Of a DNA stretch of 64,000 nt, positions 61,551-64,000 are shown piece by piece. The DNA comes from an uncultured Bacilli bacterium. GTDB taxonomy: Bacteria; Bacillota_I; Bacilli_A; RF39; UBA660. Where the stretch lies: contig CAKORJ010000001.1 in assembly GCA_934101575.1 (NCBI GenBank), positions 402,994 to 466,993 on the forward strand, written 5' to 3'. The notes under the pieces are model-generated. The model made no database searches and was not told the DNA's origin. It saw only the letters and a list, made by a program, of their open reading frames with translations. Position 1 is the first letter of the stretch; every line of letters begins with the position of its first letter. Made by a program: the position numbers and the translations under genes.

Positions 61551-62567
61551 CTATTTTTTAAATAATATTTTGTTATCCATATTACATTTAAAATAATAAC
61601 TACTAGCATGTTTTATATGTCCAACATAAGAATTATAACTCAAAATAAACTTTTTAATATCTAGATTATCATTATTATATAAATAATTCCAAACTTTTAT
61701 CTTCTTATATATATTCTTCTTAATTCTATTACCAAGTAATATATAATCTTCATATATAATAAATCCTAAAAAATTACACCCCTCTTTATTTGGAAAATAT
61801 TTACTTTTAGGATTCAATTTCAAATTAAGTCTAACATCAATAAACTTTTCTATTAAATTATATATATTTCTAGCACTATCCTTATCCTTAACCAATATAA
61901 CAAAATCATCCATATATCTACAATAATACTTAATCTTTAAGTTAAATTTAACATAGTAATCAAGTTCATTTAAATATATATTAGCAAAATATTGACTACT
62001 ATAATTTCCAATAGGAATGCCTTTATCTTTATATGAATAAATCATATTATATGTAAAATTAAACAAATATTTATCATTAATTTTTTTACTTAAAATATTA
62101 AATAATATATCTTTATCAATACTTTCAAAAAACTTACTTATATCAAGTTTTATAATGTAATAATCATTATATTTATTTCTCATCTTATTCATAAAATACT
62201 TTAAACGAAATATAGCTTTATGAGTACCTTTATTTTCTATACAAGCATAACTATCATATATAAATCTAGAAACAAAAAATGGTTTTAAAAAGAACTCTGC
62301 ATACCATGTTTGTACTACTCTATCAATAAATGGTAAACATCTTATTACTCTTTTCTTAGGTTCATATATTATAAAACTCTTATAAGATCCTATCTTATAA
62401 TTAAAAGTAGCAATTGAATTAAGTAAGTTAACTAAATTAATTTCTAAATTATATTCAAAAAATAATACTTCAAATACATAACTCTTACCAACCTTAGTCT
62501 TATTATAAGAATATAACAAATTAAAAAAAGTTAAATTACTATAAAAACTATTTCTTATACTTTTCAT
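61551..62567 (-). CDS. diversity-generating retroelement reverse transcriptase
   Basis: RT motifs RVIRCLPFIDRVVQ, IIKLDISKFFESIDKD and YCRYMDDFVIL (YxDD). Motif 4 is GIPIGNYSSQYFANIYL, the DGR-specific IGxxxSQ signature found in place of the canonical QGxxxSP. 338 aa. Confidence 0.85.
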   Translation of the reverse strand: MKSIRNSFYSNLTFFNLLYSYNKTKVGKSYVFEVLFFEYNLEINLVNLLNSIATFNYKIGSYKSFIIYEPKKRVIRCLPFIDRVVQTWYAEFFLKPFFVSRFIYDSYACIENKGTHKAIFRLKYFMNKMRNKYNDYYIIKLDISKFFESIDKDILFNILSKKINDKYLFNFTYNMIYSYKDKGIPIGNYSSQYFANIYLNELDYYVKFNLKIKYYCRYMDDFVILVKDKDSARNIYNLIEKFIDVRLNLKLNPKSKYFPNKEGCNFLGFIIYEDYILLGNRIKKNIYKKIKVWNYLYNNDNLDIKKFILSYNSYVGHIKHASSYYFKCNMDNKILFKK

Positions 62568-62883
62568 ATAAACCTTTTCTTATATTATCTATAATAGTTA
62601 CTTTCTTACTAAAAGATAAATAATTCTTATTAGATATATATTTCATCTTATAAGAAATACGATATAAAACAAGTAATACCTTTAAATTATTATCTAAATA
62701 ATCCAAATACAATTTCTTACTACTCTTATGAAAATATATAATATTATTGAGTCCTAACCCTAAAGTATTCTTTATATCTAAAACAATACCACTTTTCTCA
62801 GACTTAGGGTACTTAACACTTAACTTATATACGTAATATATTAAATCAACATATTTTTTATATAAATACAAATCATTTAACAT
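62548..62883 (-). CDS. avd: DGR accessory variability determinant (Avd-like four-helix-bundle protein)
   Basis: 111 aa basic helical protein directly upstream of the RT, overlapping it by 20 nt. Size and position match Avd / 23S-IVS four-helix-bundle proteins. Confidence 0.65.
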   Translation of the reverse strand: MLNDLYLYKKYVDLIYYVYKLSVKYPKSEKSGIVLDIKNTLGLGLNNIIYFHKSSKKLYLDYLDNNLKVLLVLYRISYKMKYISNKNYLSFSKKVTIIDNIRKGLYEKYKK

Positions 62884-63049
62884 AATACCTCCTAAAAAAT
62901 AAAAAGTTTTTAATGTTCAAAATAATTACTAATTAAAAACTCTTAAATATATATTTAGTTCATATGAACTAGGAATAAAACTTGAACTAATTATTCTTTT
63001 TATATTGTCCTTAAACAATTTATAAAGCTATATTAATATAGTTCTAAGG

Positions 63050-63180
63050 GGCGAGAGGAATTGTTGGAATTAGCATTACCATTGTTACTGCCTGAGTTAA
63101 ACGCCCCGGCATTTGTACCATTGTTATAGTTACCACCACGTTTGAACCAAGGGTTATTCGAGTTCGCAAGGTAAGAGTTA
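63050..63180 (-). repeat. DGR template repeat (TR)
   Basis: 91 nt (63050-63140) align to 63909-63999 with 13 mismatches, 11 of them at TR adenines on the minus strand. The TR reading frame is Asn-codon rich (NYNNGTNAGAFNSGSNNGNANSNN). The 5' boundary is approximate because the VR is cut by the window edge. Confidence 0.8.
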
Positions 63181-63220
63181 TCGCCTATAGTTTTATCCCT
63201 ATATCAATATAAATTGATAC

Positions 63221-63631
63221 CTATAAATTTTCTAAATATTTTCTTATATCTAAAAACAAAGAGCTATTATTTCTTATTTTAGATAACATTAAATCATTTA
63301 ATTTTGATATACATTCATTAAAATTAATCTTTTCTAAAGATTTATCTAAATAAAAGCTATATTTATTATATATACAATCATAAATAATAAAATCATTAGT
63401 ACCATTTATAACAATAGAACTAATACTATTATTTTTCAAGTACATCAACACCTTATTTAAGTTTTCCTTAGGAAATCCAATAGTATACTTAGAACTAATC
63501 TTATAATTAAAAAAATAATTAATTATAAAAGCATCATAATCAAATGCTCTATAAAACTTACCATATTTTATCAGAATAACATGCTCATTATACTTTTCCT
63601 TTAATTCTTTACTATATTCAGTTATAGTCAT
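63221..63631 (-). CDS. hypothetical protein located between DGR target/VR and TR (possible DGR accessory gene)
   Basis: 136 aa ORF with AGGAGG RBS 6 nt upstream of the ATG. No recognisable motif. Confidence 0.4.
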   Translation of the reverse strand: MTITEYSKELKEKYNEHVILIKYGKFYRAFDYDAFIINYFFNYKISSKYTIGFPKENLNKVLMYLKNNSISSIVINGTNDFIIYDCIYNKYSFYLDKSLEKINFNECISKLNDLMLSKIRNNSSLFLDIRKYLENL

Positions 63632-63654
63632 AATTTACCTCCTAACACAAATAT

Positions 63655-63687
63655 AATATAACACACACACACACACACACATGTCAA
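63655..63687 (-). promoter_or_regulatory. putative sigma-70 promoter with (GT)10 tract as spacer
   Basis: Minus strand TTGACA (63687-63682), then 21 nt consisting of (GT)10, then TATATT (63660-63655). AGGAGG RBS and ATG at 63631 follow. Confidence 0.4.
63661..63680. repeat. (AC)10 / (GT)10 dinucleotide microsatellite
   Basis: Perfect 20-nt AC repeat in an AT-rich intergenic region. Confidence 0.95.
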
Positions 63688-63884
63688 GTAAAAACATACA
63701 AAAAAATAAATTTGCGTTACTTATTAACAAAAGCAAAGTTTTCATAACAAAAGTATTAAACTTTTGTTATGGGAAAACTATTTCTACAACCAATATTTTA
63801 TCAAAAAATTATAGTTTAATTTACATAGAAAAAATCTTATAAAATTACTTATCCGTAATTTTATAAGACTGTTATTTTGTTATC

Positions 63885-63902
63885 TAACACCTTACGGTGT
63901 TA
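63885..63902 (-). other. GC-containing hairpin immediately 3' of VR (DGR homing hairpin candidate)
   Basis: taacacc-ttac-ggtgtta (7-bp stem, 4-nt loop) beginning 7 nt after the end of TR/VR homology. No equivalent hairpin next to the TR. Confidence 0.55.
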
Positions 63903-64000
63903 TTATGAGGCGAGAGGAACTGTAGGAATTAGCATTACCATTGTCGATGCCTGAGCAAAACGCCCCGGCAAACGTACCATAGTAATAGTAACCACCACGC
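63892..64000 (-). CDS. DGR target gene, C-terminal fragment carrying the variable repeat (partial, gene body beyond right edge)
   Basis: Minus-strand frame reads ...RGGYYYYGTFAGAFCSGIDNGNANSYSSSRLIITP-stop (stop at 63894-63892). VR = 63909-64000. Confidence 0.7.
   Translation of the reverse strand, partial: RGGYYYYGTFAGAFCSGIDNGNANSYSSSRLIITP
63909..64000 (-). repeat. DGR variable repeat (VR), truncated by window edge
   Basis: Aligned to the TR, with substitutions confined almost entirely to positions that are A in the TR. Confidence 0.8.

Follow-up and report, generated by a model that had tools for sequence, protein, structure and literature searches.

Diversity-generating retroelements (DGRs) are widespread, with ~31,000 catalogued and a particular enrichment in the human gut (Handa et al., bioRxiv 10.1101/2023.10.23.563531), and some of them carry a small MutS-like accessory protein. 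In a survey of 372 DGRs, 16 had a member of this MSL family; each of the 16 also had avd and none had HRDC, an arrangement called 'Architecture D' (Wu et al. 2017, PMC5758913). Its surveyed members have 112–283 amino acids (aa) and a mean isoelectric point (pI) of 7.2 (Wu et al. 2017 NAR, PMC5758913), and Wu et al. also recorded three MutS_I extensions of reverse transcriptases (RTs; PMC5758913). The protein was named Msl in Bacteroides DGRs (Macadangdang et al., bioRxiv 10.1101/2024.11.15.621889), and deletion of the host mutS gene in B. ovatus raised retrohoming 5- to 10-fold (bioRxiv 10.1101/2024.11.15.621889). The literature describes the Msl-bearing DGRs of Bacteroides as quiescent both in culture and in gnotobiotic mice; it also reports activity of homologous elements in mothers and infants, and regulation that is at least partly transcriptional. 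Here we describe a DGR at the right-hand edge of a 64,000-nucleotide (nt) stretch of contig CAKORJ010000001.1 from an uncultured Bacilli bacterium; 'the window' refers to this whole stretch.

The second point of reference is the Bordetella bRT–Avd system. Its RNA comprises a stem-loop after the template repeat (TR), a TR:Sp template:primer duplex ending at the priming nucleotide A56, two nucleotides, an upstream:Sp 'cPRT Stop' duplex, a short stem-loop with adenosines and, last, a single-stranded 'Thumb Ring' and a long bRT-binding stem-loop. Like elements were found in 207 of 278 Avd-containing DGRs, and the catalytic residues of bRT are D138, D215 and D216 (Handa et al., bioRxiv 10.1101/2023.10.23.563531).

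The window very probably carries a chromosomal, structurally intact DGR of the Msl class that is episodically active and diversifies the C-terminal ligand-binding tip of a 1232-aa protein. The Msl type is an already described subtype of DGR; its host lineage here is an uncultured one, and the target family is undescribed.

The cassette, its reverse transcriptase and its repeats

The cassette lies within positions 61551-64000, with all parts on the minus strand, along which the order is variable repeat (VR), msl, TR, avd and RT. A preliminary description of this DNA had reported four elements in DGR order. All of these were re-found on that strand at the positions it had assigned, but a 136-aa open reading frame (ORF; 63631..63221), which is msl, had been missed, so that the co-oriented components number five. 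The DGR call itself was sound, being supported by RT affinity, by the adenine bias between TR and VR and, at scores below the model cutoffs, by Avd, and it was incomplete for want of Msl. Between the target gene and a downstream Rpn-like gene, msl, avd and rt are the sole ORFs.

The RT (61551..62567, 338 aa) has the motifs GIPIGNYSSQYFANIYL and YMDD, and its ORF reads GIPIGNYSSQ. The IGxxxSQ signature of DGR RTs, pointed out earlier, is present as IGNYSSQ, and GIPIGNYSSQYFANIYL was re-found in the RT ORF; the Bordetella motif cited beside it was inexact in its letters (the solved bRT chain reads GIPIGSLTSQLFANVY), but the signature is the same. The protein matches Pfam RVT_1 (E 1.6e-20), and its closest solved relative is 8ub7_A (328 aa; 159 bits, residues 5-321 aligned), a full-length match ahead of all other solved RTs by ~90 bits. 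We infer that 8ub7_A is Bordetella bRT from its 328-aa length and from the numbering D138/D215/D216, in which Asp 138, 215 and 216 are the catalytic residues given by Handa et al.; a text search of the literature for the PDB code 8UB7 returned no paper. The RT of the window keeps residues aligned with all three. An affinity with retron or group II RTs had been named as the finding that would speak against a DGR; by pairwise score, the match to bRT (E 2.7e-45) far exceeds those to solved retron and group II RTs (E 3e-17 to 1e-13).

The avd gene (62548..62883, 111 aa) overlaps the RT gene by exactly 20 nt (62567 versus 62548), as previously noted. Its product, with a pI of 9.75, matches Pfam bAvd (E 1e-9; 39.3 bits, just under the cutoff of 40.0) and NCBIfam DivGenRetAVD (E 1.2e-11, under that model's cutoff), which agrees with its earlier designation as Avd-like at scores below both model cutoffs. 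A search of PDB sequences with Avd gave no match.

At the edge of the window, the 3' end of the target gene (63892..64000; the last 35 codons and the stop codon at 63894..63892) carries the VR (64000..63909), and the ORF leaves the window, both as first described. The 3' 92 of the 136 VR nucleotides (63909..64000) are inside the window and the first 44 outside it. The remainder was read from L001, a contig from a Hadza human gut metagenome that equals the window across the entire 10.8-kb overlap and extends beyond its edge. Related contigs, which are referred to by L numbers and come from human gut metagenomes, were found by a look-up of the 136-aa Msl protein.

The TR (63050..63185) is 136 nt long and contains 40 adenines and 15 AAY codons. 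Its alignment with the VR is ungapped, both for the 92 bases in the window (15 mismatches, 13 at TR adenines) and for the full 136 nt (VR at L001:9588-9723), in which 17 of the 21 mismatches (81%) fall on TR adenines. Given 40 adenines in 136 nt, the hypergeometric p for this enrichment is 1.3e-7; the adenine bias on which the first account had made the DGR call depend is thus strong over the full alignment. From TR to VR, the adenine-site changes are A to T in nine cases and A to G in eight. Only one TR codon is able to mutate to a stop, and the coding capacity amounts to ~10^24 DNA variants or ~10^22 peptides. No second VR copy occurs elsewhere in the window.

These data bear on whether the RT could belong to another class (group II intron, retron or Abi/DRT defence RT), with TR and VR being an ordinary segmental duplication of the target 3' end. 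The NCBIfam matches of the RT would suit such a reading, as they comprise a group II intron RT (E 1.5e-30), Drt3a and retron St85, weak and far under the cutoffs, and no DGR RT model is among them. Against it stand the lead of ~90 bits that bRT holds over its full length, the adenine-specific mismatches (p 1.3e-7), a TR built of AAY codons, and the presence of Avd, Msl and DGR-type RNA elements together. Nor is there an intron RNA, a maturase or endonuclease domain, or an Rfam match (0 families at gathering thresholds across the whole window, where a tRNA scan likewise gave 0 genes). We consider another RT class extremely improbable.

The Msl protein and the RNA around the template repeat

Msl (63221..63631, preceded by AGGAGG at 63643..63638) is a stand-alone MutS domain I protein of 136 aa with a pI of 8.9. 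It scores 29.9 bits against the Pfam MutS_I gathering score of 20.6, and an AlphaFold2 model built with 14 homologues reached a mean predicted local distance difference test (pLDDT) score of 90. Foldseek matched this model to domain I of E. coli MutS, Taq MutS and human MSH3 with probability 1.0. The MutS domain I fold accounts for ~95-100 residues, two further C-terminal helices span residues 91-135, and the ATPase and clamp domains of MutS are absent. With this protein, an avd gene and no HRDC gene in the cassette, the element falls into the Msl class (Architecture D).

Could msl instead be unrelated to the DGR, a host mismatch-repair fragment or decoy, or a chance small gene between VR and TR? 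In sequence searches of the PDB, neither the Msl sequence nor its family profile gave a meaningful match or any match to MutS, and we found no functional test of Msl for any system in the literature; both points leave room for that idea. Its difficulty is that all related cassettes whose core is complete have msl in this position, in at least three chromosomal contexts. Moreover, a word-indexed search gave 15 close clusters of homologues and an exhaustive profile search 751 at E <= 0.001 (143 at E <= 1e-10), nearly all of 120-150 aa and matching over their full length. Two of the proteins found, P0171 (489 aa) and P0149 (322 aa), are fusions in which a C-terminal Msl domain follows a DGR RT with IGNMTSQ or IGNMSSQ and YMDD, and the literature already treats the protein as a DGR accessory class (PMC5758913; bioRxiv 10.1101/2024.11.15.621889). 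We give next to no credence to an msl gene that is independent of the DGR.

The residues conserved in Msl suggest how far the resemblance to MutS extends. Among 131 aligned homologues, Phe26 is invariant (131/131) and G24 (127), Y27 (118), D33 (129), F53 (130) and P54 (128) are nearly so, whereas residue 28 varies (R 25, N 19, K 14, Y 14, V 11, I 11). Phe36 of the MutS Phe-X-Glu motif stacks on a mismatched base, with which Glu38 makes contact. A weak alignment with the MutS N-terminus (hhalign E 0.0025, probability 12%; the numbering of the E. coli sequence used reproduces the textbook F36/E38) sets Msl G24-K-F26-Y-R28 opposite G34-D-F36-Y-E38. Phe-X-Glu is not preserved: the Phe is kept, but the equivalent of Glu38 is Arg in the window and is unconserved across the family. 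Msl shares the fold of MutS domain I and its Phe, and is not a full MutS-type recogniser. Of Msl, Avd and the RT, it is also the fastest-evolving, with an identity between L001 and L015 of 47.5%, compared with 85.6% for Avd and 69.2% for the RT.

The natural RT–Msl fusions accord with the three RT extensions recorded by Wu et al. and argue for physical cooperation of Msl and RT. Taking them together with the residue pattern and the published suppression of retrohoming by host MutS, we speculate that Msl, by binding the heteroduplex of cDNA and VR (or of RNA and cDNA) with its dense mismatches, protects it against host MutS and so raises the fraction of changes that become fixed.

The TR sits in a non-coding stretch of 337 nt between msl and avd. 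We aligned the interval from the msl stop to the avd start from ten lineages, and RNAalifold on this alignment and a single-sequence minimum free energy fold (z -2.5) predicted the same structure. Directly 3' of the msl stop codon, RNAalifold places a 5' hairpin, GUAUCAAU-UUAU-AUUGAUAU (63220..63201), two pairs of which show compensatory change. The adjoining segment AGGGAUAAAACU (63200..63189), just 5' of the TR, is predicted from the alignment and from the single sequence to be the 5' strand of a 12-bp long-range helix with AGUUUUAUUCCU (62982..62971). Beyond the TR, the spacer RNA (62902..63049) has a predicted, conserved structure. It starts with a divergent segment resembling IMH* (IMH, initiation of mutagenic homing), and a second predicted helix joins the template strand GAACUAUAUUA (63044..63034), close to the 3' end of the TR, to the primer strand UAAUUAGUUC (62993..62984), with a tetraloop stem-loop (63027..62996) nested between them. 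A single unpaired A (62983) separates the primer strand from the 3' strand of the long-range helix, and is followed downstream of that strand by a 5-bp stem-loop (62970..62957), a single strand that starts with AAA (62956..62945) and a long stem-loop at the spacer end (62944..62902).

In the helices outside the TR, 97.9% of cells pair, versus 43-54% when the partners are slid; compensatory changes occur at seven pairs, versus 0-4 with slid partners, and none of 500 shuffles reached the observed covariation score. The spacer DNA is 84.6-100% identical to that of the window, compared with 68-97% for msl DNA and 75-92% for the TR, and keeps this level across lineages whose Msl proteins are 47-96% identical.

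The predicted fold matches the topology of the Bordetella DGR RNA, with 63200..63189 corresponding to the upstream 'cPRT Stop' strand. Such a plan is expected rather than new, given that similar elements are reported for most of the Avd-containing DGRs compared by Handa et al. By analogy, priming would occur at C62984/A62983, with cDNA starting near 63045 and stopping near 63186-63189. In contig L003, an 11-nt deletion of TTCAAGTTTTA (L003:10646, equivalent to window 62976-62986) is the only difference from L001 in 13 kb. The lost bases include the candidate priming nucleotide and some of the long-range helix on its spacer side; the deletion could reflect a natural loss of function or a fault of assembly.

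The target, the promoter-like site and variation among relatives

The preliminary description had proposed extending the contig to find the whole target, with a lectin-type fold and the VR at its C-terminus. The full gene, of 1232 aa, was recovered on L001 (6042-9740) and the VR does span the last ~45 codons of its ORF, but the target of the window gave no Pfam or NCBIfam match. The protein has an N-terminal hydrophobic segment and an N-terminal region of ~650 aa without recognised domains, and belongs to a family of 79 clusters, all from metagenome assemblies, for which the sole source name is 'hypothetical protein'. At the C-termini of the family, the scaffold PWF-RGG-AG-F-SSRL-ITP is fixed and the residues between are hypervariable. 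FGE-sulfatase is the only recurrent Pfam family, found in 13 of 30 members with a best E of 4.3e-5; P0053 alone exceeds its gathering score (23.7 versus 23.3 bits, profile positions 31-211 of 255). The target in the window carries the FGE-type motif GVYDMSGG upstream of the VR. Evidence at the level of the family suggests that the C-terminal domain is likely a diverged one of the FGE/C-type-lectin type, apparently interrupted in the 1232-aa form by an insert of ~170 aa.

A search of the PDB with the target-family profile gave only a chance endonuclease match (E 0.18). NCBIfam returned no signal-peptide or sorting model for the target, leaving an impression of a SipW/TasA-type N-terminus unsupported; the protein is presumably secreted or surface-exposed. 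P0054, which is 97% identical over half of the target, was considered as a VR variant and rejected, its C-terminus being unrelated.

TR and VR share a GC-rich end, TCCTCTCGCC, after which the sequences part (IMH versus IMH*). Seven bases past TCCTCTCGCC in the VR lies a hairpin, TAACACC-GTAA-GGTGTTA (63902..63885; dG -5.9 kcal/mol as a DNA fold, z -4.1), with the target stop codon in its loop. Eight lineages keep this hairpin with variable loops, and L025 has an unrelated longer hairpin in the same place. It occupies the position of the target-recognition hairpin or cruciform of DGRs, and by analogy may have that role.

A terminator-like hairpin with a T run follows (63868..63828; fold z -4.95) and is kept across lineages, with changed stem bases in L014/L017. 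Because it lies between them, the target and msl-TR-avd-rt are likely to be separate transcription units. Between this terminator and msl there is also a 16-bp AT-rich hairpin, CCCATAACAAAAGT...ACTTTTGTTATGGG (63739-63775), which a scan found to be terminator-like on the plus strand and inside which the similarity of L027 to the window ends.

Upstream of msl, a promoter-like site (63655..63687) can be read from the sequence as TTGACA (63687..63682), a 21-nt spacer of T(GT)10 (63681..63661) and TATATT (63660..63655). The TGTG-T immediately before the second hexamer resembles the Gram-positive -16 TRTG motif. The site is present in all 26 related loci with a complete region, mostly with a spacer of 21 nt: T(GT)10 is pure in five lineages, down to 47% Msl identity, and the length is retained with an interrupted GT repeat in L014/16, L018-21 and L028. 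Exceptions are L011-13 (20 nt) and the L004/L007 group (13 nt, where an alternative TATATA gives 18-nt spacing). A scan for consensus promoters with 16-18-nt spacing did not call the site, and we found no paper tying a DGR promoter to a dinucleotide repeat. Slipped-strand phase variation at (GT)10 is not supported, as the length is kept at 21 nt in most lineages. As an alternating purine-pyrimidine run, T(GT)10 is prone to form Z-DNA. After the GT tract, an (ATATT)n repeat (window 63646-63660) has two copies in the window, three in L018/L019 and four in L020/L021, which alters the distance from the promoter-like site to the ribosome-binding site.

A bolder proposal is that the conserved T(GT)10 spacer is a regulatory device, sensitive to supercoiling or Z-DNA or subject to two-unit slippage to 17 bp, that keeps msl-TR-avd-rt near-silent and releases it in bursts, with Msl as a shield against mismatch repair. 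If true, it would explain the alternation of quiescence and diversification; we think it improbable.

Put together, these features suggest a course for diversification that is modelled in part on bRT–Avd. The dedicated promoter-like site would drive msl-TR-spacer-avd-rt, presumably as a single transcript, which fits the gene order, the terminator-like hairpin before it and the avd/rt overlap. In the predicted and conserved fold of this RNA, the TR is flanked by two helices, one formed with the spacer by the 12 nt on its 5' side and the other formed with the neighbouring spacer strand by the segment on its 3' side. By topological analogy with bRT–Avd, RT–Avd would bind the RNA and prime cDNA in cis at the C62984/A62983 junction, and by the same analogy the TR would be copied with random misincorporation opposite its 40 adenines until the upstream duplex brings synthesis to a stop. 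The cDNA would then replace the VR, perhaps guided by the observed TCCTCTCGCC end and the hairpin after it, and Msl could act on the resulting heteroduplex.

Evidence that such elements have been active comes from the relatives. L004 and L007 have identical TRs and VRs that differ at 32 of 138 positions, 26 of them at TR adenines, with 4.9% divergence outside the VR, and L016 and L017 likewise share a TR and have different VRs. All VR/TR mismatches are at adenines in L022 (22/22) and in L025/L026 (20/20). Compared with the window TR, the VR of L027 has 23 differences, of which 20 are at adenines (p 3e-10); compared with the window VR it has 25, of which 18 fall on TR-adenine sites. It agrees with the window TR at all four positions where the window VR has a non-adenine mismatch. 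These adenine-site differences imply that the TR lineage of the window has produced at least two versions of the VR. L027:4007-4520 is on a single low-coverage 5-kb contig without msl, TR, avd or rt, so that either the core was deleted, or the assembly is at fault, or a core acts from elsewhere in the genome.

Several observations weigh against an intact, episodically active element. The exact target protein occurs on 34 contigs, and five further proteins of its 90% cluster, among them P0007, a 661-aa form with a different N-terminus, share its VR peptide; the VR DNA is identical in L001, L002, L003 and L006. Four of the 21 TR/VR mismatches lie off adenines; related TRs have AAC where the window TR has TAC, and AAC-AAC where it has GGC-AGT, which suggests that the window TR drifted after the VR was last rewritten. 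The 21-nt promoter spacer is too long for a canonical sigma-A promoter. Other copies have decayed: in L028, at the same chromosomal site, a 1-nt deletion puts a stop at codon 6 of msl; avd of L004 (L004:6909-7244; metagenome-assembled genome (MAG) CAKOSE010000020) has two in-frame stops, Y19* and H52*; L023 is a truncated remnant with msl, TR and part of the spacer and no avd or rt; and the whole core is absent from L027. As for the parts of the proposed course, the long-range helix enclosing the TR is invariant in the ten lineages and, because it never varies, owes its support to conservation and not to covariation. The target of the window has no Pfam match at E <= 1, and an AlphaFold2 model of its C-terminal 585 aa was unusable (pLDDT 48, below 50 in the VR domain). 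Shielding by Msl is a conjecture, and an RT-associated role in cDNA synthesis would fit the fusions equally well.

Much of this would be accounted for by a recently silenced, decaying DGR that has ceased to diversify its target, with ORFs that still read through, a VR frozen as a relic and a drifting TR. Such a relic would show an invariant VR in close strains and in the paralogous or recombinant 661-aa form, four non-adenine mismatches best explained by TR drift, neighbours that have lost function (the msl frameshift of L028, the avd stops of L004, the missing core of L027) and a non-canonical 21-nt promoter spacer, all of which are seen. However, msl, avd, rt and every conserved RNA element are intact in the window. 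L022 and L025 share the 21-nt spacer and show 100% adenine-specific mismatches; as they look recently active, this spacer does not prevent function. The identical VRs say little, since the sampled strains are nearly clonal in this region: L001 and L002 differ by 0 single-nucleotide polymorphisms (SNPs) across the target and DGR (positions 1-12400, 12.4 kb), but the 8 kb of housekeeping genes next to them (12497-20411) contain 42, which hints at the edge of a recent recombination or sweep close to the Rpn-like gene. Finally, Msl-bearing DGRs of Bacteroides are quiescent in culture yet active in vivo. On the strength of the intact ORFs and RNA and of the Bacteroides reports, we regard a silenced relic as unlikely and favour an intact element whose activity is probably episodic, with a VR now fixed in all sampled close strains.

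The relatives offered further observations. L028 has intact avd and rt, an extra 707-aa ORF upstream of the target, and 43 VR/TR differences (7943-8352, 7520-8530), of which 22 are at adenines, together with a 3-nt indel. In L004, msl and rt are intact, and the near-identical L007 has an intact avd. L007 also carries a second VR (L007:3190-3327) in an 872-aa paralogue upstream of the main target; this VR matches the same TR at non-adenine positions, so the L007 element has two targets, and the L004 counterpart of the paralogue has a degenerate VR. L005 (1-1500) is a mosaic, with a VR and (GT)6 promoter of the L007 type and TR, avd, rt and downstream housekeeping genes of the window type; its TR and VR mismatch at 18 non-adenine positions, and the locus has either recombined in or close to msl or been assembled as a chimera. 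Scans of JGI metagenomes with the TR (N at adenines) and with a conserved spacer 40-mer gave 0 matches each and, like the IMG/VR scan below, added no VR variants.

The GC content of the cassette is 21-22%, versus ~29-31% in the adjoining housekeeping genes. In the lineage of the window, it lies between a pseudouridine-synthase/157-aa gene pair and an Rpn-family PD-(D/E)XK gene, after which come rlmN, a PP2C phosphatase gene and a PASTA kinase gene; in the L007 lineage it precedes rimP-nusA-infB, and in L022 an AAA_14/DUF4143 gene. The Rpn-family gene (60434-61399, minus strand), directly downstream of the RT, matches Pfam PDDEXK_2 (E 1e-17) and, above cutoff, TIGR01784, a family annotated as 'recombination-promoting nuclease/putative transposase'. 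In L027, this gene directly follows the terminator of the target, the DGR core being absent, and the cassette seems to be acquired or lost whole beside it. Among the relatives, only the MAG labelled 'uncultured Bacilli bacterium' has a name; its RT is 85% identical. A scan of IMG/VR with the conserved spacer probe gave 0 matches.

Comparison with known systems

As a DGR call, the locus is largely ordinary, one more in a very large catalogue. The parts most worth following up are the conservation pattern of Msl and the conserved GT spacer. Given the suppression of retrohoming by host MutS, the invariant Phe, the variable Glu position and the RT fusions make the function of Msl directly testable. 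The cassettes form a series from pristine (L022, L025) through intact but drifted (the window) to decayed or lost (L028, L004, L023, L027), which could be mined for how DGRs are maintained and lost. A Bacillota-type RNA that is predicted to reproduce the topology of the Bordetella ribonucleoprotein supports the generality of the priming and stop mechanism, and the target represents a large, hypervariable and presumably secreted protein family of uncultured gut bacteria.

Like the Msl-containing DGRs of Legionella pneumophila and Bacteroides (Bfr/Bth/Bun), the element combines a stand-alone MutS domain I protein with avd and a DGR RT and without HRDC, has adenine-specific TR/VR differences and places the VR at the C-terminus of a presumed secreted or surface protein; with those of Bacteroides it further shares a gut-associated host and apparent quiescence. 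Unlike them, it resides in an uncultured, very AT-rich (~28% GC) Bacilli-like lineage, in the order target-msl-TR-avd-rt with msl first behind its own promoter-like site. Its target, of 1232 aa, belongs to an undescribed family and is not a pilus-tip adhesin or lipoprotein, its Msl has a pI of 8.9 compared with the survey mean of 7.2, and it has the conserved T(GT)10 spacer.

The target can be set beside the variable proteins of the FGE-sulfatase/C-type-lectin fold, of which Treponema denticola TvpA is an example. It resembles them in having the VR in the last ~45 codons, GVYDMSGG upstream and a fixed scaffold between AAY-encoded sites, and differs in lacking a Pfam match of its own and in its ~170-aa insert and domain-less N-terminal region of ~650 aa.

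With the Bordetella BPP-1 DGR (mtd-avd-TR-brt), the element shares full-length RT homology with the catalytic Asp residues and IGxxxSQ, a probable Avd, the adenine signature, a GC-rich VR end followed by a hairpin, and a predicted RNA of the same topology, in which the stop duplex is one nucleotide from the template:primer duplex. In contrast to the phage-borne BPP-1 element, it is chromosomal (no IMG/VR match). Its TR precedes avd, so the upstream strand of the stop duplex is non-coding here and not the 3' end of avd. It also has the extra Msl gene and a target that is not Mtd-like, and the biochemical steps worked out for BPP-1 would apply to it by analogy.

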